Source: a virus
Lineage: Duplodnaviria; Heunggongvirae; Uroviricota; Caudoviricetes
IMG/VR virus record: IMGVR_UViG_3300028549_001428
DNA: 64,000 nt
Reading direction: 5' to 3' (one strand)
The translations under genes and the position numbers were made by a program. Under the pieces are notes generated by a model, which saw only the letters and a list, made by a program, of their open reading frames with translations, was not told the origin of the DNA and searched no databases. This document shows, one piece after another, positions 1,948 to 61,863 of this stretch (within the stretch, counting starts at the first letter, position 1; the number at the start of each line of letters is the position of its first letter).

Positions 1948-1963
1948 TTAATATTTTACTATT

Positions 1964-2416
1964 TTATCCACCCATTAAGGAATAACTACAATTTCTTTTT
2001 CCACCTTTGTAGTACCATTCTTTATCATGTGGGTGTTGCCAGTTGGTACACCTTACAGCTACGCCGCTAGTACATTCCAGATCGGAGCCACATTCTGGAC
2101 ATCCATTTGGTACAATAAATTTATCACCCAGTAATGATTTCCATTTCATTTTATAGCGCAGTTTACCACCATACTTATGATCCATCTTATCCAACCATTC
2201 AAATAGTTTTAGGTGTTTAATAGTCCAATAGACTTTATCACATAATTGTAAATATTTAAACTTAGGATCTTTGGGATGTAATGCCATCTTTCCTTTAGTT
2301 ATAACCCACCAATATGAGTTATGCGACCATTGAAATATAGCGTAGAATGGGTTAATTGATTTGTATTTGAACATACCAATTAGAAAGATCAAGCAGATTA
2401 TTAATAAAGTTATCAT
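1964..2416 (-). CDS. membrane-anchored Cys-rich protein
   Basis: N-terminal TM helix and a C-terminal CPECG...C..C cluster. Confidence 0.5.
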   Translation of the reverse strand: MITLLIICLIFLIGMFKYKSINPFYAIFQWSHNSYWWVITKGKMALHPKDPKFKYLQLCDKVYWTIKHLKLFEWLDKMDHKYGGKLRYKMKWKSLLGDKFIVPNGCPECGSDLECTSGVAVRCTNWQHPHDKEWYYKGGKRNCSYSLMGG

Positions 2417-2431
2417 TATTTTATTTTTCCA

Positions 2432-2818
2432 TTAAAGTGCAAGGTAGCATAAATCACATTCGATATATGAATCATCTTCAATGAATGTGAATGCTAGTTT
2501 TTGTGTATTTGGACTGATAATCACGTCCTTTACTGTATTGTATCTGTATGTGCTTTTAAAGGGTTTAGGAGCACGTTTGCCATCACCTGAACACTTCACT
2601 ACACGTTTACCGATCATTGCTTTAAGGTCATCTTCTGTGCGTTCATGATCTACACTGAATGTAGTTCCATGTTCAACGCAAGAGCCATCATCTAGAAATG
2701 TCAATTGAAATGGTAGTGGAATATCCTTTGATTCCCAAGCTGCTTTTCCCATTCCTCTGAAACGAATTTGCAATCCATTTTCGAGGACATACCAAATATC
2801 TTTTTTAATTGTAATCAT
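2432..2818 (-). CDS. hypothetical protein
   Basis: ORF in a packed co-directional block. Confidence 0.5.
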   Translation of the reverse strand: MITIKKDIWYVLENGLQIRFRGMGKAAWESKDIPLPFQLTFLDDGSCVEHGTTFSVDHERTEDDLKAMIGKRVVKCSGDGKRAPKPFKSTYRYNTVKDVIISPNTQKLAFTFIEDDSYIECDLCYLAL

Positions 2819-5102: not shown

Positions 5103-5128
5103 ATGAACCCCATGAAACCCCTGAATCT

Positions 5129-6148
5129 TCAGTTCAGGGGAGACAAAATAATATAATTGTTGTAGGATTTAAAGGTTATGTCGGAATGCGAAGCGTTCTG
5201 ACATAACCTTTTTCCTGTTTTTAAGTTATGTAGACTTATTCTATTATTGGAAGTTCCACCAATCGTACACGTTCCATATTTAGGATGTGCTACAATTGAT
5301 CCTCTTCTGAAACCTATGGATCTCGTTGACCCATAGGGTCTACGGATTCCACCCTTTGCAGGTTGAAATGCATGTAACTGTCTACGATGAAACTGCATTG
5401 GTTTAATCAATAACATAGACCTGTCAATACTTGGTAAAGATTTCATCTGCGATGACGCAAGCACCCATGAATCGACACAATGCGCATCCCATGTATTAGA
5501 AAGTTTGTTAGAATTCTTTGAAAAGTCATGTTGCTTACGCAACGTTGCTGTTTCAAACCCCTGTAACAAAATTACGTTTAACCCAAGTGATTCTAATTGT
5601 GAATAGAACCATTTTTTCCCCACTTCGAGTGGAGAAAATGAAACATTCCATTTCTTTTTATCAGGCTTCGTTACAGCTTTTATATCTTCTATCACAGCAG
5701 TTGAAATAGGAAATATTTGTTTCATTGACATAATCAGATTTAGTTTTGCTTGCCATCTAGCTTTAGTGCTCGGTGGCAACCATTCTTTATCAGAACAATT
5801 CAAATACTTGTTTTTCCTACATGGCGTATTACGTTGCCTTCTCGATCTACGAGCATTTCTGCGTGATTCTAATGCGTCCTTAACCCAAGTGACAGCATCC
5901 AACTGTATATTCAATACAGTTTTCTTTTCTGTTGTTATTGATAAGCCTTCTTTCTTTGATCCGGGGTCTACCCCGATAGTTATTGGTTGAATCTTATTGT
6001 CGGAAGGTGCTCTGTTCAACCTGATACAGAACACACCTTTATGGATGAAAGGAGTCGCTTGTCTGGATGCAATGAGCCGTCTTGCCCTTGTGGGACAAGT
6101 CGGCATCAATACCATTCCATTATATATAACTCCTACTGACATCATCAT
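5129..6148 (-). CDS. isrB: IsrB (HNH-less IscB-family RNA-guided RuvC nickase)
   Basis: PLMP domain VLMPTCPTRARRLIASRQATPF, RuvC-I IGVDPGSKKEG, Arg-rich bridge helix ESRRNARRSRRQR, RuvC-II AVIEDIKA, RuvC-III TWDAHCVDSWVLA. Only about 70 aa separate RuvC-II and RuvC-III, so there is no HNH. Length 339 aa. Confidence 0.8.
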   Translation of the reverse strand: MMMSVGVIYNGMVLMPTCPTRARRLIASRQATPFIHKGVFCIRLNRAPSDNKIQPITIGVDPGSKKEGLSITTEKKTVLNIQLDAVTWVKDALESRRNARRSRRQRNTPCRKNKYLNCSDKEWLPPSTKARWQAKLNLIMSMKQIFPISTAVIEDIKAVTKPDKKKWNVSFSPLEVGKKWFYSQLESLGLNVILLQGFETATLRKQHDFSKNSNKLSNTWDAHCVDSWVLASSQMKSLPSIDRSMLLIKPMQFHRRQLHAFQPAKGGIRRPYGSTRSIGFRRGSIVAHPKYGTCTIGGTSNNRISLHNLKTGKRLCQNASHSDITFKSYNNYIILSPLN

Positions 6149-6415
6149 TCCTTATAAAATTTGGTCTTACGACCACTCCCTTTCGGGGTATATATTCATC
6201 TTCGTCACTGACCGACCCATAGCCTCCAACTAGACGAGTATCAGAGGGTGTATTTCGTACTGTCACGTACATTCAGTTCAGTTTGATATACCATTGCCTC
6301 TTGCGAGACAAGGCTCTCATAGACTAGTTCAATCATTCAATATATCCCATGAACTCTCACGAAGTTGACAAACCTTCCAAATTCACAAGCCCCTTGGTCT
6401 TTAACCGAGGGGTGA
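6149..6415 (-). ncRNA. putative IsrB omega-RNA scaffold
   Basis: A ~270 nt non-coding stretch immediately 5' of isrB, markedly GC-richer than its surroundings and containing many hairpins. Its position matches where IscB/IsrB omega-RNAs are encoded, and a promoter lies just upstream. Confidence 0.55.
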
Positions 6416-6428
6416 TTGACATACTACA

Positions 6429-11816: not shown

Positions 11817-13105
11817 TATTCGTGAACTACCCCTGAACTAAAGACTCAGGGGCTTCAAATGACATCGCTGACATTCTTTCTGCACTGGTTGCTAACGCAA
11901 TCCCATGTTTTGCAGACTTGGATTTCTGGGTGTTCCTATCTGACCCAGTATTTTTATTATCAATTGTGACAAACGAGAAATCTCGTATATTGATAGCAGC
12001 ATTAACATCCCTATCGTGGCATTCACCACAATTTGGACATGTCCATGTTCTATCAGACAACTTCAAATCGTGTTTTATGTAACCACATTTAGAACAGGTT
12101 TTTGAGCTTGGTTCAAATCTACCAATAGTTAGTATGTTACTTCCATACCATTCGCTTTTGTAGCGAAATTGTTGGAACAACATTCCCCAACCTGCATCTT
12201 GTATGTGTTTAGATAACTTACGATTTTTCATCATTTCTTTAACATTCAGGTCTTCAATGCAGATAGTTTGGTTCTCACGTATCAGTCGTGTTGAGACTTT
12301 ATGAATGAAATCTTTTCTTTGATTAGCTACACGTTCGTGTAGCAACTGTAATTTTAATTTTTGTTTCTCTGCGTTCTTAGATAATACATCACCTTTATTT
12401 TTCGATTTGATTTTTCTCGAAAATGAACGCTGAATACTAGCTAGTCTACGCTGACATGTAACAAAATGTCTTGGATTCTTTATTTCTTCACCATCACTTG
12501 TAACAATGAATGACTTTATACCTACATCAATACCAATAGCAGTTTCTTTATTGATCTCTGGCTTACTTGGTAACTCCGTTCCATCTTCTACGAGAATGGT
12601 TACGAAGTAACGACCAGCATTAGAACGCTTGATATGGCAAGTACGAATTTCACCTATGAATTGACGATGAAATACAGTCTTTATCGGTTCATTGAACTTC
12701 GGTAATTCGATGATACCTATATCGAAATTAACCGTTAGGTTTTTGGGAACCTCAAATGATTGTTTGGACTTACGATTCTTGAACTTAGGGAATCCACCCG
12801 ACTTAGCGAAGAACTTATTGTATGCGGTATCTAAGTGGATAAGCACAGCCTGTAGTGATTGTGAATTTACTTCTTTCAACCACTCAGTAGATTCCTGTTT
12901 CTTCAACTTCGGTAGATCGGCTTGTATATCATATCTAGATAATGTACCACTTGTCTGTTTGTAATGTGAAATCTTACGAGAAAGAGCATAGTTGTACATC
13001 CATCGACAATGACCAAAGTGCTTTGATAAAAGCGACTTCTGTTCATCGGTTGGATATATTCTGTATTCGTATGTCTTTTTCATCTCTACTATACAATATA
13101 GATTA
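11817..13105 (-). mobile_element. IS200/IS605-family tnpB-only element (family A, copy 1)
   Basis: TnpB ORF plus a right-end hairpin cccctgagtctttagttcagggg inside the last codons, followed by the conserved GGGTAGTTCAC end. The CCCCT-hairpin left end is not recognisable in this copy. Confidence 0.6.
11827..13083 (-). CDS. tnpB: TnpB (IS605 OrfB) RNA-guided nuclease, family A
   Basis: Has the YEYRIYPT N-terminus, RuvC-I GIDVGIKSF, RuvC-II CIEDLNV, zinc finger CSKCG...CPNCG, and RuvC-III HDRDVNAAINI. Length 418 aa. Confidence 0.9.
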   Translation of the reverse strand: MKKTYEYRIYPTDEQKSLLSKHFGHCRWMYNYALSRKISHYKQTSGTLSRYDIQADLPKLKKQESTEWLKEVNSQSLQAVLIHLDTAYNKFFAKSGGFPKFKNRKSKQSFEVPKNLTVNFDIGIIELPKFNEPIKTVFHRQFIGEIRTCHIKRSNAGRYFVTILVEDGTELPSKPEINKETAIGIDVGIKSFIVTSDGEEIKNPRHFVTCQRRLASIQRSFSRKIKSKNKGDVLSKNAEKQKLKLQLLHERVANQRKDFIHKVSTRLIRENQTICIEDLNVKEMMKNRKLSKHIQDAGWGMLFQQFRYKSEWYGSNILTIGRFEPSSKTCSKCGYIKHDLKLSDRTWTCPNCGECHDRDVNAAINIRDFSFVTIDNKNTGSDRNTQKSKSAKHGIALATSAERMSAMSFEAPESLVQG

Positions 13106-15067: not shown

Positions 15068-16472
15068 GTGTATCAATTACCTTTTTAACTGATTTCGTGA
15101 GAGAAATCCCCTAAATCTTTAGTTTAGGGGATGAATCGAACAATACAAATATACAAAAATCTAAGAAAAAATAAAAATATTTCTTAGATTATATAAACTA
15201 ATACTATGAAACGGACTTATGAGTATAGGATATATCCACGTTCTGACCAGAAAGTGCTTCTATCGAAGCATTTTGGTAGTGTTCGTTGGATGTATAATTA
15301 TGCATTGGGACGTAAGATAGAACATTACAAACAGACAAGTAAGACACTTTCTAGATATGAAATACAGGCAGAAATACCAGCAATGAAGAAAACTGAATCA
15401 ACGGCTTGGTTGAAAGAAGTGAATTCCCAGTCATTACAGGCTGTTTTGTTGAACATAGAAACTGCATATACAAAGTTCTTCAGTAAATCGGGAGGATTCC
15501 CGAAATTTAAGAACAAGAAATCAAAACAGTCATTTGAAATACCTACTAATCTAGAAGTTGATTTCGATAGTGGAACTATCGAAATCCCGAAGTTCAAGGA
15601 ACCAATCAGGACTGTATTTCATCGCAAGTTTGTAGGTGAAATACGAACCTGTCATATCAAGCGTTCCGCTTCTGGTAAATATTATGTCACTATTCTAGTG
15701 GATGATGGTAAGGAATTACCAGTAAAACCAGAGATAACAAAAGAAACTGCTATTGGTATTGATGTAGGTATCAAGTCATTTATCGTCACCAGTGAAGGTG
15801 AAGAAATATCTAATCCAAGACACTTTGTTACATGCCAGCGTAGGCTGGTATCTGTTCAACGTTCATTTTCGAGAAAAATCAAATCGAAGAAGAAAGGTGA
15901 TCCTTTATCACTAAACGCTGAAAAAGTAAAATTGAAACTGCAATTGCTCCATGAGCAAGTTGCTAACCAACGTAAAGATTTCATTCATAAAGTCTCAACT
16001 CGACTGATACGTGAGAACCAAACTATCTGTATTGAAGACCTGAATGTTAAAGGAATGCTCAAGAACCGTAAGTTATCTAAACACATCCAAGATGCTGGAT
16101 GGGGAATGTTATTCCAACAACTTCGCTATAAAAGCGAATGGTATGGAACTAATATCCTAACCATAGGCAGGTTCGAGCCTAGCTCGAAAACCTGCTCTAA
16201 ATGTGGTTACATAAAACACGATCTTATATTGAAAGATAGAACCTGGACTTGTCCGATTTGTGGTGAATGCCACGATAGAGATGTCAACGCTTCTATCAAC
16301 ATTAGAGATTTCTCTTTTGTCACTATTGATAATAAAAATACTGGGTCAATTAGGAACACCCAGAAATTAAAGCCTGTAAAATATGGGACTTCGTTAGAAG
16401 CCAGTGCAGGAAAAGCATCCGTGAGGACGCTTGAAGCCCTTGAGTCTTTAGCTCAAGGGTAGTTCACTAATA
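15068..16472 (+). mobile_element. IS200/IS605-family tnpB-only element (family A, copy 2)
   Basis: Left-end block atttcgtgagagaaatcccctaaatctttagtttagggg (about 15085-15133) is shared with copy 7. The right-end hairpin cccttgagtctttagctcaaggg lies inside the last codons, followed by GGGTAGTTCAC. Confidence 0.7.
15206..16462 (+). CDS. tnpB: TnpB (IS605 OrfB) RNA-guided nuclease, family A
   Basis: About 75% aa identity to 11827..13083, with the same motifs; in inverted orientation relative to copy 1. Confidence 0.9.
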   Translation: MKRTYEYRIYPRSDQKVLLSKHFGSVRWMYNYALGRKIEHYKQTSKTLSRYEIQAEIPAMKKTESTAWLKEVNSQSLQAVLLNIETAYTKFFSKSGGFPKFKNKKSKQSFEIPTNLEVDFDSGTIEIPKFKEPIRTVFHRKFVGEIRTCHIKRSASGKYYVTILVDDGKELPVKPEITKETAIGIDVGIKSFIVTSEGEEISNPRHFVTCQRRLVSVQRSFSRKIKSKKKGDPLSLNAEKVKLKLQLLHEQVANQRKDFIHKVSTRLIRENQTICIEDLNVKGMLKNRKLSKHIQDAGWGMLFQQLRYKSEWYGTNILTIGRFEPSSKTCSKCGYIKHDLILKDRTWTCPICGECHDRDVNASINIRDFSFVTIDNKNTGSIRNTQKLKPVKYGTSLEASAGKASVRTLEALESLAQG

Positions 16473-50363: not shown

Positions 50364-51224
50364 ATGATGTGCGATGCTACCTGTGTAAAGATATCTACAT
50401 ACACTAATATTATAGATACATCAGTAATTAAATGCTGGTTTAATAATGGTGATATTGCTTTCAGTGGTTGGGCGGTTGCAATTATAACCATAGTAATAAC
50501 CATAGTAATTACCGTTGGAATTGCTATATATACCATAAATGAAACTAGAAAGAATTCATATTGTAATATATTAAAATCAGTTCAGTTAAACCATTATAAA
50601 ATATGCAATAAATTTAAGGATATGTACACATACCGCAGTGGTGGTATAGGTAATATGTTAATCATATGGAATTCAATTAGACCCAATGTATTGTTATTAC
50701 TTGAAGAGGCTGAATCTAATATCATACTGTTAGATGAGTATTCATTTTATTTTTATAAATCAACCTACGTAAAAAATAAAATGACTAAAGTAAAATCAGA
50801 TCATGATAAGTTACTTAATGTAGTAAATTACTTTGCAAAATGGAGTCACACATGGGAACATGATTTAACTACCTATCATATCAATACTTATAAAAATGGA
50901 TTGATATCTGATAGATGGTACGTAGATGAACACGTTGTATTACCTGATTCTGAATATGACTACAATAATTATCAAAATAGAGAAGTAAGAATCTCGCTAA
51001 ATGAATATTTGTGTAACATTGATAAAAAATTGAACTTACTTAATTCTGTGCATGATAATAAATATAGAATCAATCAAGGACACTACAATTTTAATGATAT
51101 TCAATGTATGCATTGCATGGAATATAACCATGAAAATGCACACATATGTAAATACTGCGGTACAGTAACAGATTTAGGTAAATATTTTCCATACAAACTA
51201 AATACACAAAATCACACTTCGTAA
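50364..51224 (+). CDS. membrane protein
   Basis: TM segment AVAIITIVITIVITVGIAIY near the N-terminus; Cys cluster at the C-terminus. Confidence 0.5.
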   Translation: MMCDATCVKISTYTNIIDTSVIKCWFNNGDIAFSGWAVAIITIVITIVITVGIAIYTINETRKNSYCNILKSVQLNHYKICNKFKDMYTYRSGGIGNMLIIWNSIRPNVLLLLEEAESNIILLDEYSFYFYKSTYVKNKMTKVKSDHDKLLNVVNYFAKWSHTWEHDLTTYHINTYKNGLISDRWYVDEHVVLPDSEYDYNNYQNREVRISLNEYLCNIDKKLNLLNSVHDNKYRINQGHYNFNDIQCMHCMEYNHENAHICKYCGTVTDLGKYFPYKLNTQNHTS

Positions 51225-51321
51225 TATAAGAACTTGAAAATAAATATGCAAAAATACTGAAAAGTGTGTAAAAATATGCTATATTTATTTCTGTTTTATA
51301 TAAACTATAAGGAAAGAACCA

Positions 51322-51501
51322 GATGGAACGTATGAAAGTAGTTAGAGTAACAAAAGAAGAATATGAGTTGGATGACGGAACAATCATCACTCACGTAAGC
51401 AAGTTGGACGAAGTTCCAACCATTGAAGAATTCCAAGCCTATCTAGATGAATGGTACGACAAGATCGTTCCTCGCTACGAGGAACGCAATGAAGGATAAG
51501 T
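51322..51501 (+). CDS. small hypothetical protein overlapping the IS607 left end
   Basis: 59-aa ORF (MERMKVVRVTKEEYELDD...); below the track threshold. Confidence 0.3.
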
Positions 51502-52151
51502 TAATATCTATAACCGAAGCCTGTAAAATCCTCGATGTAAGCAAGGATACCATGAGACGTTGGGATAAAAATGAAACATTCAAACCAACGAAAACCGAAG
51601 GTAAGCATCGTAAGTATCTTCTGTCCGAAGTGTACAAGAAAGCTGGTATCGTTACTGATGTAGATGGTACTCCAATCAGCGTAGTAAGCGATACAGATGT
51701 TGCTGTGTATTGCAGAGTGTCATCACATGACCAGAAGCAGAAAGGCGACCTAGAGCGTCAGAAAGCCCGTGTAATGCAACACTGCGTTGATAAGGGATAT
51801 AAGATCATTGAAACATTTGATGAAACTGGGTCTGGTATGAATGATAACAGACCGAAGTTACATAAAATGATTCAACTCGCTATCAGCGGTAAAGTGAAGA
51901 AAATCATAGTTGAACACTCTGATCGTCTTACCAGATTCAATTATAAGTTGATTGAACTATTGTTCACCAGTCATGGTGTCAAGGTTGAATGCATAGAAGA
52001 AGTTCTTGGTAAAACATTCGAGGATGAACTGGTCAAGGACATGCTTACATTGATGGCATCATTCAGTGCCAAGATTTATGGTAAGCGCAGTCACCAGAAC
52101 AGAAAGAAGAAAGATGCGGAAGTTACACCAGAGGTCGTAGCAACCACATGA
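51489..52151 (+). CDS. tnpA: IS607-type serine recombinase with N-terminal MerR-like HTH
   Basis: HTH LISITEACKILDVSKDTMRRWDK; catalytic region VAVYCRVSSHDQKQKGDLERQ...DETGSG...DRLTRF. The likely start is MKDKL; the track ORF begins further upstream. Confidence 0.85.
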   Translation: MKDKLISITEACKILDVSKDTMRRWDKNETFKPTKTEGKHRKYLLSEVYKKAGIVTDVDGTPISVVSDTDVAVYCRVSSHDQKQKGDLERQKARVMQHCVDKGYKIIETFDETGSGMNDNRPKLHKMIQLAISGKVKKIIVEHSDRLTRFNYKLIELLFTSHGVKVECIEEVLGKTFEDELVKDMLTLMASFSAKIYGKRSHQNRKKKDAEVTPEVVATT

Positions 52152-53488
52152 TCCGTATGCGTAGTCACAGGATTGAGTTGAGACTTAATCAGGAACAGAG
52201 AAGCCTTTGCGCCAGAAGCGCAGGTACTTCTCGCTACGCATATAATTGGATGTTAGATAAATTAACTGGTGAGTACGAAGCCAATAAAGCACTCGCTACC
52301 ATGTATGGATTATCCAAGGTTCCATCTACGATGGGAACTGCTATGGACTGGCATAAGGAATGGAACAAGTTAAAGAAAGTTGATGGATTCAACTGGATCT
52401 ATGAAACCAGTAAATGTTGTGGTCAAGAAGCACTTCGTGACCTACAGGTTGCATACAATAAATTATTCAAGAAATTGGGTGGATACCCAAAGAAGAAAAA
52501 GAAAGGTGTGAATGATTCATTCCGTCTTACTGGTGCTATCAGAGTAGGTTATGACTGGGTTCAAATTCCCGGTATCGGTATAGTTAAACTGAAAGAAAAA
52601 GGATATGTAGTTTGTAAGGATGAACAGATTGATCTACCACAAATAACAGTATCTCGTCAGGCAGATCATTGGTTTGTGTCATTCTTATTGCGTGAAGAAG
52701 TAGCGGAAGTAACCAAGGCAACATGGGATGAAATCACCGATGATGAATATGATGTGATCGGTGTCGATCTTGGTATCAAGGATCTGGCTATCACCAGTTA
52801 CGGTGAAACATTTCATAACCCAAGAGCATACAAACAAAAGATTCAACGATTGAAACGCTATCAGCGTTCAGTTAGTAGAAAGAAGAAAGGATCAAATAAC
52901 AAGAAGAAGGCGATATTAAAACTCTCTCGTCTTCATAAGCAGGTTGCTGATATCCGCAATGACGCTACACATAAAATGACTACATCGGTGGTGAAAATCA
53001 AACCGAAGGTGTTAGTTATTGAGAGTTTGAAACCAAAGAACATGAGTAAGAATAGAAAGTTAGCTGGATCGATACTTGATGCTTCCTTCGGGAAGATCAA
53101 AGTACAGTTCCAGTATAAATCAGAATGGAATGGTATTAGATTGGTGATGGCACCAACATTCTATGCATCATCCAAGTTCTGTTCATCATGTGGATATAAG
53201 AAAGAAGATTTAAAACTAGAAGATAGATACTGGGTATGTCCTGTCTGCGGTGAACATCATGATCGTGATGTCAACGCATCCAGAAACCTACGTTTCTTCG
53301 GACTCTGGTTAATGGATTTATTGCCCGTGAGTTCCACGGGTATTGCCTGTTCGATTGATGAATGTCAGTCGAATGCTGTTGGTGACTTGTCACCGAAGTA
53401 TAGAGATGGGAGGTTACAGTTCTTCATTGAACAGTGCCTATCGATGAAGCAGGAATTCAAAAATGCGGAATTTGCACCATGTGCATAG
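52148..53488 (+). CDS. tnpB: TnpB RNA-guided nuclease (IS607-associated)
   Basis: RuvC-I GVDLGIKDLA, RuvC-II VIESLKP, zinc finger CSSCG...CPVCG, RuvC-III HDRDVNASRNL. The GC-rich 3' end contains ggtgacttgtcacc and tgcaccatgtgca hairpins. Length 446 aa. Confidence 0.9.
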   Translation: MIRMRSHRIELRLNQEQRSLCARSAGTSRYAYNWMLDKLTGEYEANKALATMYGLSKVPSTMGTAMDWHKEWNKLKKVDGFNWIYETSKCCGQEALRDLQVAYNKLFKKLGGYPKKKKKGVNDSFRLTGAIRVGYDWVQIPGIGIVKLKEKGYVVCKDEQIDLPQITVSRQADHWFVSFLLREEVAEVTKATWDEITDDEYDVIGVDLGIKDLAITSYGETFHNPRAYKQKIQRLKRYQRSVSRKKKGSNNKKKAILKLSRLHKQVADIRNDATHKMTTSVVKIKPKVLVIESLKPKNMSKNRKLAGSILDASFGKIKVQFQYKSEWNGIRLVMAPTFYASSKFCSSCGYKKEDLKLEDRYWVCPVCGEHHDRDVNASRNLRFFGLWLMDLLPVSSTGIACSIDECQSNAVGDLSPKYRDGRLQFFIEQCLSMKQEFKNAEFAPCA

Positions 53489-53738
53489 TTTTGCATACTT
53501 TTGTTAGAACGGTATATGAATAACAAACATCCACTCGAATACAAACTAGAAATAGGAACTATCGTACAAAAAAAATGATTATTTCTATATCAATGGTGAA
53601 AAAGAAGAAATACCAGATATTGGTAATGACTTTGTTGTTGACTCTGATGTAATTCCAATATATCGAGCCGTTAATTGCTTAACATGTAAGCATTCTACTC
53701 TTCGTAACAATAGAGCATACTGCACTAAAGCAGCAACA

Positions 53739-54044
53739 ATGGTATGTCATGGCGATGCTTATAGTGAGTTTGAATTGAAATTTCAAAAAATACCAACAGC
53801 AAAAAAACTTCAGCTATATGTATGGGAAGGTGTGCTATGTGATTATACAGATGGTATAATGTTTGCACTTGCGCATGATGTAGAAGAGGCTAAACTTGCT
53901 ATTGTTAAATCATATGATATTAGACAATATAATAAGATTATGAATGGTGAACCCATTAAGTGCGAAGATGTCATATATGATTTACGTAAACCATATACGA
54001 TACACGACACAACAATTGGATTTCATCTTCATAGTGGTGGATAA
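53739..54044 (+). CDS. hypothetical protein (possibly longer; upstream frame open without ATG)
   Basis: The ORF from an ATG. The same frame stays open for about 55 codons upstream and encodes a plausible CxxC...C segment. Confidence 0.4.
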   Translation: MVCHGDAYSEFELKFQKIPTAKKLQLYVWEGVLCDYTDGIMFALAHDVEEAKLAIVKSYDIRQYNKIMNGEPIKCEDVIYDLRKPYTIHDTTIGFHLHSGG

Positions 54045-54046
54045 TA

Positions 54047-54080
54047 AAAAAGAGCCAGTTAAACCTGGCTCTTTTTTTTT
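54047..54080. terminator. bidirectional rho-independent terminator
   Basis: gagccagttaaacctggctc stem between an A-run and a T9 run, where the convergent gene blocks meet. Confidence 0.7.
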
Positions 54081-54366
54081 ATGTTTCAAATGCATCACTA
54101 TCTTCGACATCGTAAGTATCTAAGAAAACAACTTCTCTGAATTTTTGTGTATATGTTTGCTCGGTTACTTTAATCTTACCGAACACCGTGATATATTCAT
54201 ACACCTGATCAATAGTTGTTTCATATGCCGTTGCAAATTCTTCTGTGAAGAAATCGGCAGATGAATGTAGACTGGTTAAACTCAACCAGTATTCACCTAA
54301 TTCATCATTTATCAATTGAGCATATTTCTCAATTACTGATATCTTTTCGTTTATATTCATTTTCAT
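54079..54366 (-). CDS. hypothetical acidic protein
   Basis: ORF in a packed block. Confidence 0.45.
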   Translation of the reverse strand: MKMNINEKISVIEKYAQLINDELGEYWLSLTSLHSSADFFTEEFATAYETTIDQVYEYITVFGKIKVTEQTYTQKFREVVFLDTYDVEDSDAFET

Positions 54367-54616
54367 GTCTCTCTTGTGTTTTTGTTATGTATTCATCTAT
54401 TGTATCGTTTTGATCAATTGCTAATCGTTCATAATCTTTAAAAAATACATCGTTGTGGATAGCAGTTAAGCCAGTAGTACCAACAGATTCAATCACTACG
54501 AATGGTTCAATTGGTATTACATCTGCATACATGCCATTAGCAAGTATAACGTTAGCATTGCTATGTCTAATAGCAAACGTTCTTTTTTCTTTATGTATCC
54601 ATATTTGTTTAGGCAT
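54329..54616 (-). CDS. hypothetical protein
   Basis: ORF in a packed block. Confidence 0.45.
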   Translation of the reverse strand: MPKQIWIHKEKRTFAIRHSNANVILANGMYADVIPIEPFVVIESVGTTGLTAIHNDVFFKDYERLAIDQNDTIDEYITKTQERHENEYKRKDISN

Positions 54617-54618
54617 TG

Positions 54619-54807
54619 TTACAGTCCACTCAAAATCGATGTCAGCAAATCTAATATAATTACACCAAGTTCCAGTACACTTTCAGAGTCAGGAAACCCA
54701 CACCCTTTTTTATTTGCTCTTGCGATAATAAATATAATAACGCCTATTACAAATAAACCACCTACGCATATTATCGCTGCTATTTCTTTATCCGTCATGT
54801 TGTGCAT
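54619..54807 (-). CDS. small membrane protein
   Basis: TM helix. Confidence 0.4.
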   Translation of the reverse strand: MHNMTDKEIAAIICVGGLFVIGVIIFIIARANKKGCGFPDSESVLELGVIILDLLTSILSGL

Positions 54808-55131
54808 TCCCTATATTTTCGTGTAAACAATACTGCTTTACGGCATTTTCTACAATAAGTGTATCTAAACTCTTCAGTTTTTGGGATTGCTAAATTAGTT
54901 TCATGCTTTTCATCATGCCAAAGCAAACATATTTCCCAATCACCATCAAGTTGTTCATTCGATGTCATTTTGCTTCTTTATACTCGCTTAATACTGAGAA
55001 TGGTACTTGTGTAGTGCATCTATGCAAATCCCTGTACTGAAACTCACATACATCGCTGTTATGCAAGCGTCTAGTAATTCGACCAATGAATCCATTCAGT
55101 ACATATAATTTTTCGGGTTGCATATTAGCTC

Positions 55132-55398
55132 CTATTTTGATTCGAAATCAGATTCATCTTCACTGTCGGATTCATGATGGTCATCGTGAATATCCCAAGG
55201 CAATTCTTTTCGATTGAATCCAATAAAATTATCCTCTTGACATGCTTCACAACGATATACACCATCGTTAGGACATTGCCCACATGGATTAATTATTTTT
55301 GATTTCAGTTCACACTCTTCCAGATAGTGGCGTTGTCGCATTTCGCTCAATTGTTTGCGAACTAATCGGTTTTGATCTGCTGTTTCTTGTGGTGTCAT
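55132..55398 (-). CDS. Cys-rich acidic protein
   Basis: CGQCPNDGVYRCEACQ. Confidence 0.45.
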   Translation of the reverse strand: MTPQETADQNRLVRKQLSEMRQRHYLEECELKSKIINPCGQCPNDGVYRCEACQEDNFIGFNRKELPWDIHDDHHESDSEDESDFESK

Positions 55399-55601
55399 TT
55401 TTCAACTCTCTTTAGAAACCCAGTTACGCCAGCAACAAACAACCCAACGCCTAGTACACCCAATAAGATTGGTAACAGTGTGCTCACCATAGCACCAACT
55501 ATACAAATACCCAAGCCGATAGTACCAACTACAGCAGATTCTTTCCAATTCTTTGTCTTTCCTAGCTTATATTCGTATTACATATTTACCTTTTTTTATC
55601 A

Positions 55602-55630
55602 AATATAGAAAAAGTATTGAACATTGTCAA
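55602..55630 (-). promoter_or_regulatory. sigma70-type promoter TTGACA-N17-TATATT
   Basis: rc of aatata-N17-tgtcaa, about 200 nt upstream of 55132..55398. Confidence 0.5.
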
Positions 55631-55747
55631 TGTTTTATCGTTTACATATTGATGAAACTGTTTTTTTGCAAATTCTATAAATCCCACATCAGTTGGCATT
55701 GTTTTTATTAAATCGTTTCTAATCATCTTCTGATCTGAAATAACTTA

Positions 55748-55880
55748 GTGAACTACCCATGGGTTAAATGCTCATAGGATTCTGACTTCATAGACAGTTG
55801 CGCATTGCTACGGCTAACACCATCTCCATCAGTGTACTCGCCAGTTCCTGACGAGAGAAGGCTTACACCTTCTGTTAATA
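55748..55880 (-). mobile_element. orphan family-A tnpB 3'-end / omega-RNA right-end remnant
   Basis: GC-rich 130 nt whose end, catgggtagttcac, and preceding sequence align with the last ~120 nt of tnpB 11827..13083 and 15206..16462 (gaagcccttgagtctttagctcaagggtagttcac). There is no ORF upstream. Confidence 0.55.
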
Positions 55881-55906
55881 TATTTTTACTATACATATTT
55901 AACACA

Positions 55907-56137
55907 TCAAGTTCGCTTTCTACGTTCTAGAATATACCATACAACGAATATAAGAACAATCATAAGAACTGTCATTCCGTTAAATATAGCAACTGCTGTT
56001 AGGATTGAAAAATTGCCACCATATACCGAGGCTATTACATATCCCAGAGTTGCAATCAATGGTGATCGAAGTACATCAATCCATTTTTTTGACAAGAATT
56101 TAAAAAACTCATTCATCATAAATCCTCCTGATTCCAT
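55907..56137 (-). CDS. small membrane protein
   Basis: Two TM helices. Confidence 0.4.
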   Translation of the reverse strand: MESGGFMMNEFFKFLSKKWIDVLRSPLIATLGYVIASVYGGNFSILTAVAIFNGMTVLMIVLIFVVWYILERRKRT

Positions 56138-56553
56138 TTAAATACTTTCATTGAGATATCATTGATTGGTGTGATATCTTTTTCATAAATCCCTGAAATG
56201 GTTGTTCTGTAAGTTGGAATTTTTCTAACTCCATACTTCTGCGGTGCCTTAATAAATTCTATTGCTATACCAGAATATAGCCATTGTTTGTTTCTGCAAT
56301 ATACATTTCGTAGATGAACTAATGAATATTGATTAAACCTTGTATCATGTACAATAACAATATCGCCAGGTTCATACGTTGTTGGTTTAGTAGGTAAATT
56401 ATCAGTCCCTACTATTCTAGTTACTTTACTAAATTGGGTTAGAATGGTTTCCTTCATATCCCTTATTGCAATCAATAAGTATACATATACCAATAAAACT
56501 ATAACAACCACTGATGAAGTTGCTATAACTAATTGTACTGTTGAAACGTTCAT
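56116..56553 (-). CDS. membrane-anchored protein
   Basis: N-terminal TM helix. Confidence 0.45.
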   Translation of the reverse strand: MNVSTVQLVIATSSVVVIVLLVYVYLLIAIRDMKETILTQFSKVTRIVGTDNLPTKPTTYEPGDIVIVHDTRFNQYSLVHLRNVYCRNKQWLYSGIAIEFIKAPQKYGVRKIPTYRTTISGIYEKDITPINDISMKVFKWNQEDL

Positions 56554-56642
56554 TCTATACCTCTAAGTTGGAATATAGAAATTTGTACAATTTATGTCAA
56601 TTTATTTTGCTTTTTTTCTATATTTATGACTTAGGAGACATT

Positions 56643-57011
56643 ATGACAAACGAAAGAACAAGCGAACTGAATAAATATATTGCCATAGCCGATATAGAAG
56701 AAAGAAAGGTAAATTCTAGAGAATTTGCGAGATTTGCTGGAAATGGTTGGTTCTCAGCACCCTTTGAAGACTTAGCTAAAATATACAAGGTTACAGCAAA
56801 AGCAATTTCTAAAAAAGAACGATCTGCTCACTGTCGTATATTCAATGGAAAAGAAATAAAACAATTCATCGATCCTATGTTCAATGGAATGATTACACTT
56901 TCATTTGATAATTATATACACGCAAATGCAACCATAACAATAAATATTGATTACACTGCATTGTCAGATACTGAATATAAAGATATGGTTAATAAACTAA
57001 AGAGACTTTAA
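56643..57011 (+). CDS. hypothetical protein
   Basis: ORF from MTNERTSELNKY. Confidence 0.45.
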   Translation: MTNERTSELNKYIAIADIEERKVNSREFARFAGNGWFSAPFEDLAKIYKVTAKAISKKERSAHCRIFNGKEIKQFIDPMFNGMITLSFDNYIHANATITINIDYTALSDTEYKDMVNKLKRL

Positions 57012-57162
57012 TATGCTACATATCCAGCAACTTGGGTGAAATGCAGAGCAGCAGAATGTGATCCAATTACAGTTCGATTTCTTGAAGAAAATGGAATCAA
57101 AGTAGATCCAAAGACAAAAGAAAATAGAGACGGTACATTAGAAGCAATATACGGACATCGTA

Positions 57163-57843
57163 ATGGTTGAAGATACTATCATATTTATTACAGGCGCAGG
57201 TATAAGCGCACTTAGTGGGATTCCAACATTCCGCAGTGAAAATGGTTTATGGAATCAGTATCCAATTAATAAAGTAGCTACAAAGGATGCTCTTGATAAA
57301 GATCCAAAATATGTAATTGATTTTTGGAACAAAATCAGAAGTCAAATGTTTGATGCTAATCCAAATGATGCCCATGTTGCTATAACCAGGCTTCAAGCAA
57401 AATATAATGTCATTGTCATTACACAGAACATAGATGATCTACATGAACGTGCAGGTAATACAAATGTCATACATTTGCATGGTGATATTAATTATGTACG
57501 TCCATTAGTTGAATCAGGTGAATGGTATGATGAACCAACCAATACATTCATAGGCAATGCTGATATACCCGAAGGTATGCGACCATCTATAGTTTTATTT
57601 GATGAAGATATTGAAAATTTCAAAGAATCTAAACTAGCACTTAAATCAGATGATGTGTGTAAAGTAGTTGTTATTGGAACTTCATTAGATGTATATCCAG
57701 CCAGTGGACTCGTTAAGTATCCACCATTCTCTTCTGATAAACATATCATAGATTTAAATCCAAAACACATATTTGGATATAAAAAACATTGTGGCAATGC
57801 TGAAATAATATTACCACGATTAGTAGATGAATGGATAAAATAA
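57163..57843 (+). CDS. Sir2-family (sirtuin) protein, zinc-ribbon-less
   Basis: GAGISALSGIPTFRSENGLW, TQNIDDLHERAG, catalytic LHG, GTSLDVYPA. There is no CxxC...CxxC zinc module. Length 226 aa. Confidence 0.8.
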   Translation: MVEDTIIFITGAGISALSGIPTFRSENGLWNQYPINKVATKDALDKDPKYVIDFWNKIRSQMFDANPNDAHVAITRLQAKYNVIVITQNIDDLHERAGNTNVIHLHGDINYVRPLVESGEWYDEPTNTFIGNADIPEGMRPSIVLFDEDIENFKESKLALKSDDVCKVVVIGTSLDVYPASGLVKYPPFSSDKHIIDLNPKHIFGYKKHCGNAEIILPRLVDEWIK

Positions 57844-57845
57844 AA

Positions 57846-57870
57846 GGAGAGTATTCACTCTCCTTTTTTT
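57846..57870. terminator. bidirectional rho-independent terminator
   Basis: ggagagtattcactctcc stem plus T7. Confidence 0.65.
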
Positions 57871-58195
57871 ATCGTTTGTATGATCCACATTTTTTACATG
57901 TAATAACATCATGATTATCATAATGTTCTGTTATATCAATCCAATTATGTTTACATGTCATTCTTAAATCAACTATTTTTTCATCAAGGTCATCAATACT
58001 TGTATTCAAATCACGCTTTCTTATTTTTAACAGAGTTAAAATATGATTTTGATCAGCATCCCAATCTTTATATGATTTTTTTATTGCTGTAATAGCATCA
58101 TCTACTGCATGATACATTTCCCATTCACTAGCTTTTTGCTTTTCAAGTGTAGCTATTTCAGGCATCAAATCTTTATATTTATAATCGTCCAACAT
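57869..58195 (-). CDS. hypothetical protein
   Basis: ORF; coiled-coil-like, with a C-terminal CxxC. Confidence 0.45.
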   Translation of the reverse strand: MLDDYKYKDLMPEIATLEKQKASEWEMYHAVDDAITAIKKSYKDWDADQNHILTLLKIRKRDLNTSIDDLDEKIVDLRMTCKHNWIDITEHYDNHDVITCKKCGSYKR

Positions 58196-58204
58196 ACTTA
58201 ATCC

Positions 58205-58741
58205 TTAATTACATTCGGATAACATAGTTTCAATAGAACCAGCTTCATCTTCTGTCATTGTAAGATTCCACTCAGCCTTAATCATTTTCCATTCTTTTAA
58301 ATATGTACATTTGAATGGATTAAATGATGGAAGCCATTCATCAGGTGATCTACTACCCTTTGATCTATTTGGTTTTGCAAGCACTGCGATTAAGTGAAAT
58401 GGTTCATTTAAATTATTAGCATATGCTTTTTTCTTAGCTTTTATCCAATCAGAACCACCTGATGCATTAGCATTCTCAAGGGGAACTAAATGATCTATGT
58501 CAAGTAGATCAGGGTCAGTGACTATTGTTCCAGTGTATAGGCATACCCAAAGACCTTCCAATACTTTACAGCCAGACGCATCTAAAACGACTGGTATTAT
58601 ACTTTCTTGAATCAATACTTCTTGTCTAGTGTTTTGACAATCTTTATCAGCGTCTATCCACGATCCCCAATCAGCTCTTTTGTATGTTTGAGCAAATGAT
58701 GCACAAATTAATAATGCAATTAATACAATTATTCGTTTCAT
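58205..58741 (-). CDS. secreted HNH/DUF1524-like nuclease
   Basis: Signal peptide MKRIIVLIALLICASFAQT; DIDHLVPL...N core resembling HNH-type nuclease folds. Confidence 0.45.
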   Translation of the reverse strand: MKRIIVLIALLICASFAQTYKRADWGSWIDADKDCQNTRQEVLIQESIIPVVLDASGCKVLEGLWVCLYTGTIVTDPDLLDIDHLVPLENANASGGSDWIKAKKKAYANNLNEPFHLIAVLAKPNRSKGSRSPDEWLPSFNPFKCTYLKEWKMIKAEWNLTMTEDEAGSIETMLSECN

Positions 58742-58890
58742 GTTCGACTCTTTATGTAATCTACTAATATCTGACCAACAGCAATACCAAGTCCCATAAA
58801 TATGGCTTGCTCTGTTGGCATCAGCAGAAGCATAATCGCTGATGAAAATATAAAGAAAAATCCAAATTTAATTAATCGTGTTTTCATATG

Positions 58891-59112
58891 TTACCTCAAT
58901 ATCGCAATAGGCATATCTTCTATTGTAAATATACTATTTGTTTTAAATGTATCTATTGAATCACCAAATGGAAATTGAATCGACCATTTAGATCGTTTAC
59001 GTTGGTGAAAACAAATAACCATTGCTCTAGTTTCGGCAATAAGTTTAATGAACAATAACATATTAGCGTTAGTTACTTTGAAATCTATCCAATATGAATT
59101 ATTGCTACTCAT
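58891..59112 (-). CDS. hypothetical protein
   Basis: ORF in a packed block. Confidence 0.35.
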   Translation of the reverse strand: MSSNNSYWIDFKVTNANMLLFIKLIAETRAMVICFHQRKRSKWSIQFPFGDSIDTFKTNSIFTIEDMPIAILR

Positions 59113-59324
59113 GATTGTTTGTTCTGTTTCATATCTTTCATTACTTCATTCAAATAATCAAATGCTTTATTTCTAATATGATTCGGCTCAACTTTCCAAG
59201 CTGAATCAGGAATTACAGATTTGTTAATCTCATCGAATACACCAACCATAAATCCCATACAACGCAAAGCAACTTCACGCACTTCATTTTCAGTATATGT
59301 TATATCCATGTTATTCTCCTTCAT
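59109..59324 (-). CDS. hypothetical protein
   Basis: Start trimmed to MKENNMD to avoid a long overlap. Confidence 0.35.
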   Translation of the reverse strand: MKENNMDITYTENEVREVALRCMGFMVGVFDEINKSVIPDSAWKVEPNHIRNKAFDYLNEVMKDMKQNKQS

Positions 59325-59556
59325 CGTCGCTAATTTCTTCCGAACCATCATCCATATCAATATATATGTGTGCATTACAATCAACACATCTATACAATTC
59401 ATATCGATCTGGATAATTAATAAATTCCACTTCTCTATGCATATGAAGACATTTTTTCTGTGCTGTCTTTTTTGATTGCTTTAATCTATATCGTACAATT
59501 TTCTCGATAATTATGATACCGAAAAATAATCCCATCAATATATACATGCAACTCAT
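59311..59556 (-). CDS. membrane-anchored zinc-ribbon protein
   Basis: TM helix then CLHMH...CVDCNAH. Confidence 0.35.
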   Translation of the reverse strand: MSCMYILMGLFFGIIIIEKIVRYRLKQSKKTAQKKCLHMHREVEFINYPDRYELYRCVDCNAHIYIDMDDGSEEISDDEGE

Positions 59557-59558
59557 AA

Positions 59559-59765
59559 TTATTTACTTCCAAAAAATTTTGAGAATAGATCATCAATACC
59601 AGCAAAATTACCAAATATAGGTTTCTTATGCAGTGTATATGCAGTCTTGTTTTCATCATTTGCTACATAAGGTGCCCACTTACATAGGATTGCTTTTAGT
59701 TCATCCATAGTAGCATATTCAGGAATTTCTAATTGTCTACTATTCTTTAATATTTTAATTTTCAT
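59559..59765 (-). CDS. hypothetical protein
   Basis: ORF in a packed block. Confidence 0.4.
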   Translation of the reverse strand: MKIKILKNSRQLEIPEYATMDELKAILCKWAPYVANDENKTAYTLHKKPIFGNFAGIDDLFSKFFGSK

Positions 59766-60105
59766 TAGTTATCAGTGTGTAATATTTGTTATACATCGCC
59801 AAATCTTTCTTAACTCGTTCATTGTATAATTCGGCTAATTTATGTGTGGATATTCTATCAATAGGAATTGGTATTTTTCCTTCACCATCACAATATTCAC
59901 ACGGAACTACATATTCATTGGTAGTCCACTGACTATTTTCATCTTTAAATGAATGTTCTAACGTAATAGAACATTCACCATTACATGATGGGCATTTGAT
60001 AGAATAATCAAATTCATCGTCATCTTCATTGGGATCTCTTAATTCCCAAGGCTCCCATAAGGAACTCCATTCAGCCAACGATAGTATGTCAGGTACTTTC
60101 TTCAT
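59755..60105 (-). CDS. zinc-ribbon protein
   Basis: CPSCNGEC and CEYCDGEGK; leaderless behind TTTGCTATATT. Confidence 0.45.
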   Translation of the reverse strand: MKKVPDILSLAEWSSLWEPWELRDPNEDDDEFDYSIKCPSCNGECSITLEHSFKDENSQWTTNEYVVPCEYCDGEGKIPIPIDRISTHKLAELYNERVKKDLAMYNKYYTLITNEN

Positions 60106-60112
60106 ATTGTAA

Positions 60113-60122
60113 ATATAGCAAA
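60113..60122 (-). promoter_or_regulatory. extended -10 promoter TTTGCTATATT
   Basis: 6-7 nt to the ATG at 60105. Confidence 0.5.
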
Positions 60123-60127
60123 AAAAA

Positions 60128-60496
60128 TTACTCGCAGTCTAGCATAACTGAAATAACCGCATATTGTTCTTTTACATCATTCAATTTTTCTTGCAGTTCT
60201 ACCATTTCACTTGCAATTGTTTTCTTTTTATATTCCAAACGTCTCTTAAACTCGGCACCACCCACAACTTCATCCCGATTAAAAGATAATTCAATTAGAT
60301 CAACACCTGCCTCGTAGGGACGCTGTGCAATAAATGAATTCATGCAGAAAAAATCGATATCAGATGCACTTGTTGTAGTCACACAAGAGCCAGTATCAAC
60401 TAATTTATTAACGATATTGAAAAATCCAGGGTATTTATCACTATCGTTACCACACATGTCACGCAGTATTGAATTTTCTACATTCTTAATTTGCAT
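60128..60496 (-). CDS. hypothetical protein
   Basis: ORF 12 nt downstream of the nucleotidyltransferase gene. Confidence 0.45.
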   Translation of the reverse strand: MQIKNVENSILRDMCGNDSDKYPGFFNIVNKLVDTGSCVTTTSASDIDFFCMNSFIAQRPYEAGVDLIELSFNRDEVVGGAEFKRRLEYKKKTIASEMVELQEKLNDVKEQYAVISVMLDCE

Positions 60497-60507
60497 AATT
60501 ATCTTCC

Positions 60508-61338
60508 TTACACATATTGATGTGTCATACCTTTTTCAGTGATTTGGTAATTCAAATCAGCAAAATCATACACCGCTGTTTGATTTATTGTGTTGTATAT
60601 TAATTCGATCTCTTTTAATTTTTCGATATCAAATCTACGTACAATACCACGATTATCCAACATCGTATTCAATTTAGTTTTCAGCGATTCGTATTCAACA
60701 AATAATTCATTAACAATATTGATAATTTCCGTATTAGTTGTAACACCTGCAATATTCTTATATGCCCATGCTCGTTGCCAACGCATATCAGAATTATGCC
60801 CATCACAGAAAATATATTCCTCATTATTCATGAGAATTTTTACTGTTTCGATACCACGATACATATGAGATAACTTATTGCAAATGTCCTTGGTTTGAAC
60901 AGTTGATTCAGTAAGTGTACTCAATATATATTTACCATCTTTCTTAACATATCCAAGATATGATTTAAGCAAGGCATATGATCTGTTGGTTCGTAATATT
61001 GTAAAAATTTCATCAACTTTATAAGCATCTGCAAATTTATTAAATTGACTGAATTTCCATCCACTCATCAATGCTTCAAAGTCTGCTGGACTGTCGCCCT
61101 TTATACAATTTCTAATAAATGTTCGAAGTGATTGATAATTGTAATCGCAGACATCTGATTTATACTGCCATCCATTATCTTCGGAAAACAATGTGGATTC
61201 TTTCTCTTGATAAATCCACAAAATATCAATGTCGCTAGTAGAGTTATTTAAAGCATGAGCATGAGAACCCATGAACATACTACATATGATGTTGTTTTCA
61301 AACCCTTCTCGAATTTTATCATCAATTTGTACGTACAT
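60508..61338 (-). CDS. Pol-beta-superfamily nucleotidyltransferase
   Basis: hGS-x10-DhDh signature FMGSHAHALNNSTSDIDILW; 276 aa. Confidence 0.55.
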   Translation of the reverse strand: MYVQIDDKIREGFENNIICSMFMGSHAHALNNSTSDIDILWIYQEKESTLFSEDNGWQYKSDVCDYNYQSLRTFIRNCIKGDSPADFEALMSGWKFSQFNKFADAYKVDEIFTILRTNRSYALLKSYLGYVKKDGKYILSTLTESTVQTKDICNKLSHMYRGIETVKILMNNEEYIFCDGHNSDMRWQRAWAYKNIAGVTTNTEIINIVNELFVEYESLKTKLNTMLDNRGIVRRFDIEKLKEIELIYNTINQTAVYDFADLNYQITEKGMTHQYV

Positions 61339-61341
61339 TTT

Positions 61342-61863
61342 TTAGTCCTCTAAAAGTATATCAATGATTCGATTGGTTTTATTTTCAATCTTGATCAATG
61401 CAGTTTTGATTTTTCGTGAATCTACTTGAATTGACATTGCCAAGTCAGCAACTGTAGTAGAATCAGTACGATTAAGTTTTCGTCCCTTTGCATTTACCTT
61501 TGATGAAGCAACATTTAAATCATTCCATTGCTCCATAGACACTTCGGTAACTTTATTTGATTCGACTACGGAAGTATAAGACATAAGTATTGTATTATCG
61601 GTAATGCTTATATTAGATATTCTGATTCCAATGTCAGAACAACTTGACTTAGTGTTTATTTCATCAGCTTTAAGTGTGTTGTTATGAGTTTTTGTCTGTG
61701 ACCATACAGAAATTCCGTTCTGTTCACAAATACTCTTCATTACATAAAGCCGACAACTTTCAATCTGTGGATTAACATCCTTATTAGTATCATATGGACA
61801 AACCATTTGATTTGCATAAACTGACATTGTTGCTAAAATGCTTATCAAAATCAACTTGAACAT
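61342..61863 (-). CDS. secreted protein
   Basis: Start at MFKLILISILATMSVYA (signal peptide), after SD aaggaga downstream of a canonical promoter. Confidence 0.5.
   Translation of the reverse strand: MFKLILISILATMSVYANQMVCPYDTNKDVNPQIESCRLYVMKSICEQNGISVWSQTKTHNNTLKADEINTKSSCSDIGIRISNISITDNTILMSYTSVVESNKVTEVSMEQWNDLNVASSKVNAKGRKLNRTDSTTVADLAMSIQVDSRKIKTALIKIENKTNRIIDILLED

Follow-up and report, generated by a model that had tools for sequence, protein, structure and literature searches.

The locus described here raises the question of what remains when a tnpB element has lost all but one end: whether such a piece is a decaying insertion or a stand-alone guide RNA, and from which TnpB lineage it comes. 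In the window, by which we mean the whole 64,000-nt stretch of phage DNA that was analyzed, a GC-rich block on the minus strand ends in the manner of a tnpB gene. An earlier note on this DNA had read the block as an ORF-less tnpB right end with an ωRNA scaffold, had derived it from the two family-A tnpB genes of the window, and had considered both decay and use in trans by the family-A TnpBs.

Extent and parentage of the right end

A structured, GC-rich minus-strand block is indeed present. Its GC content is 0.42-0.47, compared with 0.23-0.33 in the flanks, its 3' end reads ...CATGGGTAGTTCAC, and it lies, as the earlier note had it, directly downstream of gene 55907..56137, which shares its strand and stops 18 nt before it. 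The extent of 130 nt (55748-55880) given there was correct at the 55748 end only, and the true span is 141 nt, 55748..55888. The features of the locus and the two family-A genes are as follows:

55748..55888, minus strand: solo right end with the ωRNA scaffold, the 3'-terminal 141 nt of an E-lineage tnpB element (homology and covariance model)
55752-55748, minus strand: element tip TTCAC
55732..55747, minus strand: would-be guide TAAGTTATTTCAGATC, the 16 nt directly 3' of the right-end boundary (by position only)
55889..55911, minus strand: left junction, 23 nt, CTTGATGTGTTAAATATGTATAG, between the phage homology (stops at 55912) and the E homology (starts at 55888)
55632..55731, minus strand: remainder of the 116-nt right flank, without counterpart in related phages (locus comparison)
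55586..55726, minus strand: doubtful 46-aa ORF starting inside the right flank
55753..55905, minus strand: relic of the TnpB C-terminus, a 50-codon open frame, KNILTEGVSLLSSGTGEYTDGDGVSRSNAQLSMKSESYEHLTHG and stop
55907..56137, minus strand: 76-aa gene, last of the upstream operon, conserved in relatives up to 55912
56116..56553, minus strand: 145-aa gene, first of the upstream operon
56572..56600, minus strand: promoter-like TTGACA-17-TATATT (11/12) upstream of the operon (consensus match only)
55602..55630, minus strand: conserved promoter-like TTGACA-17-TATATT, where homology to related phages resumes
11827..13083, minus strand: family-A tnpB A1
15206..16462, plus strand: family-A tnpB A2

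Rfam yielded no family at the gathering threshold anywhere in the window and noise only near the remnant, a search of the window detected no tRNAs, and megablast of positions 54000-58000 against GenBank phages gave no match.

The 11-mer GGGTAGTTCAC occurs at exactly three sites in the window, namely the stops of the two family-A tnpB genes and the orphan block. Beyond this motif, co-linearity with family A over about 110 nt had been claimed. In the alignments the last ~45 nt of the orphan were significantly similar to family A, which reaches beyond the 11-mer (31-32 identities in 45-48 columns, z 6.4-6.8 in a shuffle test), while the 5' 96 nt were no better than shuffles (z 0.6-1.1) and blastn reported only 38 nt at 79% (E 0.008). 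The claim thus holds for the terminal part and fails for the rest.

The motif TGAGNNTTTANNNCANGGGTAGTTCAC was found in 57 stretches of viral contigs, mostly the ends of 390-435-codon tnpB genes. The best-ranked of these by similarity to the orphan was L065 (IMGVR_UViG_3300033562_000919), which carries an intact tnpB of 397 aa at 1319..2512. Its positions 2377-2517 agree with the orphan at 135 of 141 nt (95.7% identity) with zero indels, and blastn gave 93.5% over 155 columns (E 1.7e-61). Three other members of the same lineage, here called E (L018, L023, L054), are 84-86% identical. In all four E-type comparators the homology starts at exactly 55888, 140 nt before the element tip. This 5' breakpoint is sharp and falls just past the RuvC-III codons, between ..HDRDVNAA and KNILTEG.., and the left end, with all that follows it up to and including the last RuvC motif, is missing from the orphan. 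The E protein shares 47-49% of its amino acids with A1/A2 and 25-36% with the window TnpBs B1, B2, C, D, and F. None of the seven window TnpBs is E-type; a cognate tnpB in cis is absent, and upstream there is the conserved 76-aa phage gene. A search of the genome contigs with the E-core pattern returned nothing, and a 397-aa gene in the related phage L080, equal in size to the E TnpB, turned out to be unrelated.

Judged by these alignments, derivation from family A is refuted, and the proposal that the orphan is a family-A remnant, or a guide used by A1 and A2, appears highly improbable to us. The orphan has its terminal ~45 nt, with the hairpin and GGGTAGTTCAC, in common with A1 and A2, and the A-type is the window protein family closest to the cognate E-type. 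However, a great many lineages, archaea and Bacteroidota among them, have the terminal motif, which therefore does not link the remnant to family A in particular. A parent lineage at 95.7% identity exists, whereas family A shows no significant similarity outside the terminal hairpin. The family-A TnpBs are also unlikely users, being only 47-49% identical to the cognate protein and having right ends of their own that score 31-33 bits on the E model described below, on which the orphan scores 155. The orphan is almost certainly a solo right end of the E lineage with a near-intact ωRNA scaffold.

The right-end tip TGAGNNTTTANNNCANGGGTAGTTCAC was also seen (L100-L150) in Methanosarcinaceae, Methanogenium, Prevotella, Parabacteroides, Muribaculaceae, Chloroflexota, and one Chlamydiaceae MAG; ends of this type are thus present in archaea and bacteria as well as in phages. 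Perfect palindromes of the tip (GTGAACTACCCATGAG TCTTTAG CTCATGGGTAGTTCAC) with no other element sequence occur in L020/L030, L047, and L049. A complementary relic, with the 5' part retained and the 3' part gone, was observed in other samples (L151 97-618), where the N-terminal 173 aa of an E-type TnpB (P0122) are encoded as a fragment.

The RNA scaffold and the relic reading frame

The E fold was derived from a gap-free alignment of nine intact E-type 3' ends from which the orphan was left out. It consists of six helices with 41 pairs; 98% of the cells are paired, compared with 31-50% in slid-partner controls, and compensatory changes occur at 9 pairs, compared with 2.3 ± 1.3 in shuffles. MAFFT/RNAalifold over all subfamilies recovered the terminal hairpin only, and the remaining helices needed the subfamily alignment. 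On the orphan, the helices lie as follows:

55873-55856, minus strand: P1
55855-55837, minus strand: P2
55832-55828 with 55786-55782, minus strand: P3
55825-55819 with 55798-55792, minus strand: P4
55812-55801, minus strand: P5
55779-55755, minus strand: P6, the terminal right-end hairpin

A covariance model (R1) was built from nine intact E elements, and the window was searched with filters off and the related loci with default filters. The orphan scored 155.1 bits (E 8e-43) over the full length of the model (1-141), close to the 163.1 bits of the intact copy in L079; the ends of A1 and A2 reached 33 and 31 bits and that of D 20 bits. Since the orphan was excluded from the model, this bears out the reading of the block as an ORF-less tnpB right end with an ωRNA scaffold. 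The same searches revealed no second E-type copy in the 64-kb window and none in the related loci. Multiple dispersed copies, as in a PATE or MITE, were accordingly not seen, the window containing one E-type match.

The orphan retains 39 of the 41 scaffold pairs, and both failures are in P6. The hairpin P6 and the terminal motif are present, and the degeneracy ascribed to this hairpin is only mild: 8 of its 10 pairs are kept, with one U.U at the base and one A.C in mid-helix. The scaffold is retained in full, including P1 and a 15-nt leader, where miniature elements keep ~107-113 nt. When the six differences between the orphan and L065 were polarized against other E members, three to four fell on the orphan branch, among them A86G, which keeps its pair as a wobble, and G110U and U127C, which break P6 pairs. 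Drift would give such a substitution pattern, although the numbers are too few to separate neutrality from constraint.

The TnpB C-terminal frame had been described as broken after about nine codons, an error that came from alignment to the wrong family. Compared with L065, the frame (ORF 55753..55905) is open for 44 codons to the same TAG without indels, and its peptide differs from the C-terminus of L065/P0001 at 3 residues. It might accordingly be thought that the orphan is a small protein gene of 47-50 aa exapted from the TnpB C-terminal tail, since no stop interrupts the frame between 55905/55896 and the TAG at 55753 and the JGI gene caller predicts a 47-aa gene in L075. We regard this as scarcely credible. 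The open frame is inherited from tnpB, given zero indels over 141 nt, the peptide lies beyond the last RuvC motif, and three of the five altered codons carry non-synonymous changes. No convincing ribosome-binding site precedes the ATG at 55896, and no independent homologues of the peptide were seen.

The insertion site in related phages and the missing left end

An 18-kb contig (L075) from metagenome 3300033562, to which L065 with its intact E copy also belongs, is 100% identical to window positions 51116..61553. In related phages (L080-L085) the flanks are 83-96% identical to the window, and the genes follow in the order 145 aa, 71 aa, 97 aa, 62 aa (or 97, 66, and 61 aa), promoter, 62 aa, 88 aa. 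Homology ends on the left side at 55912 and resumes on the right side at 55631-55636, at the TTGACA-17-TATATT promoter. Between these points the relatives have ~508 nt with a 97-aa and a 62-aa gene (in L083/L084, which have a third small gene, about 685 nt), while the window has 280 nt, made up of the 23-nt junction, the 141-nt remnant, and 116 nt of right flank. No E-type scaffold was found in L080-L085. This break in synteny indicates that the site is variable and that an element once stood there, of which the left part was lost or replaced together with neighboring DNA. Searches of IMG/VR revealed neither relatives of the 145-aa neighbor nor a match to the back-translated pattern of the 46-aa flank ORF.

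A pattern scan detected no terminator-like site between gene 55907..56137 and the remnant. Read-through transcription of the remnant from the 56600-56572 promoter, via the 145-aa and 76-aa genes, is plausible from this arrangement. The 62-aa gene of the relatives (L080 4816..5004) has a homologue immediately after the conserved promoter at 55630-55602. It starts ATG TAA (window 55578-55583, minus strand), a nonsense mutation at codon 2, and JGI records no gene in this 188-nt stretch. A SIR2-family protein (57163-57843) and a GmrSD_C-like nuclease (58205-58741) adjoin the operon, and a C-5 methylase, a radical SAM protein, and a Band_7 protein are encoded elsewhere; these genes mark an accessory or defence-like region of the phage.

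In E elements the canonical left end consists of TTTAT, CTGATTTCGTGAGAG, and a hairpin, in intact and miniature relatives alike; in the intact elements L089, L097, and L023 and in miniatures it reads TTTAT, CTGATTTCGTGAGAGAAAACC, the hairpin CCGCTAGGTCTTTAGCCTAGCGG, and ATGAATCGAAC. Neither the left-end hairpin nor the TTTAT TAM was found in the 23-nt junction 55889..55911, and a covariance search of the window located LE-type hairpins only at places other than the orphan. Having no left end upstream, the orphan is not a PATE or MITE. A left-end remnant in the junction was considered and rejected, the weak match there being to the flank of the L065 element and not to its left end. This match of 55889-55911 to L065 1165-1187 covers 18 of 22 columns with one gap, and 0.6-1.5% of random 23-mers match as well (p about 0.01, post hoc); on the right, 55738-55747 matches L065 2521-2531 in 10 of 11 columns with one gap (p about 0.03, post hoc). 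Both flanks have diverged far more than the scaffold, which is 96% identical, and their likeness to the flanks of the tail-module element described below could be chance or could stem from an ectopic copy of that locus.

Shortened E-type copies take several forms, true PATE-like relatives of the lineage among them. Three of the PATE-like ones (L042, L043, L067) consist of the left-end hairpin and ~113 nt of right end, and in L025 and L072 the left end and the 5' part of the gene are fused to 133 nt of right end. Other RE-only, ORF-less fragments in viral contigs are cut at -112, -61, -51, and -36, and such scattered breakpoints point to random decay rather than to a preferred functional boundary. 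A PATE-like family from metagenome and viral loci (L028, L050/L099, L086-L088, L090, L092, L093, L095; also given as L028, L087-L095, L099) has the layout TTTAT, left-end hairpin, a conserved AATAATGTATATTTGAATTAAGTCAGTAAATAAGACTATAAAAC stretch, and the E scaffold from P2 with a ~23-nt insertion and no ORF; the AATAATGTATATTTGAATTAAGTCAGTAAATAAGACTATAAAAC stretch is possibly the family's own promoter. In L092 the left- and right-end hairpin sequences have changed in concert. In L055/L091 an E-type right end is joined, at -107, to the left end of another E-type element in inverted orientation; the arrangement is nested or head-to-head, with an ATAAAAC junction as in the PATE-like family.

A probable resident E-type nuclease and possible use in trans

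A JGI contig 365,647 nt long encodes an E-type TnpB that differs from the L065 protein at 2 residues (P0001, 99% identical). The genes flanking the tnpB of L079, of 332 aa and 892 aa (baseplate J-like), are recorded on a contig of this length, as are the window's proteins. We infer that an intact E element appears to reside in the tail/baseplate module of the same jumbo-phage genome as the window, which would give the orphan what trans-acting standalone ωRNAs have, a compatible effector (P0001) in the same genome. The Logan contig L076 covers exactly 30 nt of the remnant and stops there, as a k=31 assembly would if a second copy was present in the sample, which is consistent with co-occurrence of the two. 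Both L065 and P0001 carry the motifs GIDLG, LEDL, and HDRDVNAA, which correspond to the D-E-D catalytic triad of ISDra2 TnpB, and on this basis the proteins are predicted to be active.

In two relatives (L153, L154) the 332-aa and 892-aa genes stand 140 nt apart and represent the empty site of this element. The empty site reads TTTAT directly followed by GTATAATGTTATTTTTC (L153 3830-4040), and the occupied one GGGTAGTTCAC directly followed by GTATAATGTTATTTTTC (L079 5150-6660). The empty-site target, TTTAT and GTATAATGTTATTTTT, matches the guide of the intact element at 16 of 16 positions in L153 and at 15 of 16 in L154. For the intact E copy, the pair of empty and occupied sites thus confirms the right-end boundary, the TTTAT TAM, and the identity of guide and flank. 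For RNA-guided homing one expects just this arrangement of a TAM and a guide that equals the flank (PMC10055086; PMC13565253). The resident element itself (L065 1150-1320 / L079 5150-5330) has the TAM TTTAG instead of TTTAT and is without the canonical left-end hairpin CCGCTAGGTCTTTAGCCTAGCGG; this copy is therefore probably immobile for TnpA and would spread only by recombination. No Y1 TnpA was found among the 69 window ORFs of at least 100 aa. The natural pair of occupied and empty alleles makes RNA-guided homing between phage genomes directly testable.

The target of the orphan, by its position, would be TTTAT and TAAGTTATTTCAGATC. A second copy of TAAGTTATTTCAGATC at up to one mismatch was not found in the window, where near matches were at chance level only, and a site at 28065 with two mismatches was rejected because of its seed mismatches and lack of a TAM. 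The relatives L080-L085 contain neither an empty-site allele nor a counterpart of the right flank. A search of IMG/VR for TAM and guide returned one homologous contig pair with TTTAA and 15 of 16 nt, which we judged a chance match given AT-rich DNA and no wider homology.

On these data two readings have to be weighed. The orphan may be a functional stand-alone ωRNA gene, whose RNA would be processed from the read-through transcript and loaded in trans by the E-type TnpB of the tail module. Under this reading the second guide, TAAGTTATTTCAGATC..., would cut TTTAT-flanked alleles in co-infecting relatives, leading to non-restorative homing or to marker exclusion of the cassette, or it would have another target. 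The complete scaffold speaks for it (39 of 41 pairs, 155 vs 163 bits), as do the inferred presence of a cognate-type TnpB in the same 365,647-nt genome and the position of the orphan on the strand of the upstream operon with no terminator in between. The exactly predicted empty-site target of the intact E element in L153 and L154 makes RNA-guided homing between these phages plausible, and trans-acting standalone ωRNAs and ωRNA-bearing PATEs provide a precedent (PMC10691335; PMC10055086). However, no target of the orphan guide was found in L080-L085, the window, or IMG/VR, where the TTTAA pair is within chance. In addition, two orphan-specific substitutions weaken P6, the helix beside the guide, the orphan is single-copy and not mobilisable, and, unlike miniature elements, it has no promoter of its own. 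We therefore regard a functional stand-alone gene as possible but unlikely.

The reading that we prefer, with some reserve, is that the orphan is a recent and largely neutral relic. The two pair-breaking changes in P6, the scattered cuts in other copies, and the absence of a left end favor it; the full scaffold and the compatible TnpB apparently present in the same genome oppose it. We found no sign of selection to keep the relic and no known target of the form TTTAT and TAAGTTATTTCAGATC. According to this explanation, a full E element, of the IS200/IS605 family and tnpB-only (IS1341-type), would once have stood in a variable accessory region, and a deletion or recombinational replacement would have taken its left end, about 1,050 nt of tnpB, and neighboring DNA. 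Having one end only, the relic cannot transpose. It would be transcribed by read-through from the 56600-56572 promoter into an RNA that probably can still fold and that the resident E-type TnpB may bind.

Objects of this kind are already known as standalone ωRNAs and PATEs. Standalone ωRNAs without an effector, in genomes that encode effectors, work in trans, and their role is unknown, according to PMC10691335, which cites Altae-Tran 2021. The orphan resembles those described there in having a scaffold without effector or transposase in cis and a compatible effector in the genome. Theirs, however, are evidently mobilised and bounded by transposon ends, whereas the orphan is a right end only, is single-copy, and looks like a deletion product, and its use in trans is hypothetical. 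PATEs are ORF-less derivatives of IS200/IS605 elements that often encode ωRNAs needing TnpB in trans (Meers et al. 2023, PMC10055086). They share with the orphan the absence of an ORF, the origin from tnpB, and the retention of the right-end hairpin and ωRNA scaffold, but they keep both left- and right-end hairpins and can be mobilised by TnpA, while the orphan lacks the left end and the TAM.

As in ISDra2-type ωRNA, the scaffold overlaps the 3' end of tnpB and stops at the right-end boundary, the guide is the adjacent flank, and the E lineage likewise has a multi-helix fold with covariation; the orphan differs in belonging to another sequence family, in having no Rfam model, and in having no tnpB in cis. 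It also resembles solo or truncated IS ends, with one end, a sharp internal breakpoint, and neighboring genes replaced relative to related genomes. In contrast to ordinary solo IS ends, it retains a complete functional RNA module, which makes residual activity conceivable.

The seven tnpB genes of the window belong to five families (11827-13083, 15206-16462, 21683-22969, 45028-46149, 47483-48769, 52148-53488, and 62073-63374). TnpB C alone adjoins a transposase, a serine recombinase of the IS607 type (51447-52148). An IsrB/IscB-like element lies at 5113-6420 on the minus strand, with a 339-aa ORF (5132..6148) that has an RRXRR domain (E 6e-35) and no HNH match. A sub-threshold, full-length match to the Rfam family HEARO (28 bits, E 0.002) is located at 6190..6420, directly upstream of this ORF, and hairpins resembling TnpB end hairpins are found at 5113-5140 and 6387-6413 of this element. 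With at least seven TnpBs and an IsrB-like gene in 64 kb, and an eighth TnpB elsewhere in the genome, the phage is rich in RNA-guided nucleases.

Taken by itself, the orphan is an ordinary product of IS decay, and it illustrates clearly how a phage genome can contain an ωRNA scaffold without an ORF. Should the resident TnpB still load the relic RNA, a transposon fragment could supply a nuclease with an additional guide without gene duplication. Accounts of how CRISPR-like arrays arose often invoke this step. It is conceivable, though we consider it improbable, that the jumbo phage keeps a non-mobile ωRNA gene without a left end as a second guide for the TnpB of its tail module. If this were true, the nuclease would cut TTTAT-TAAGTTATTTCAGATC alleles in co-infecting relatives, and the cassette would be driven in or the relatives would be excluded. 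Such a system would be an RNA-guided analogue of marker exclusion by free-standing homing endonucleases, with guide and nuclease encoded at separate sites of the genome.
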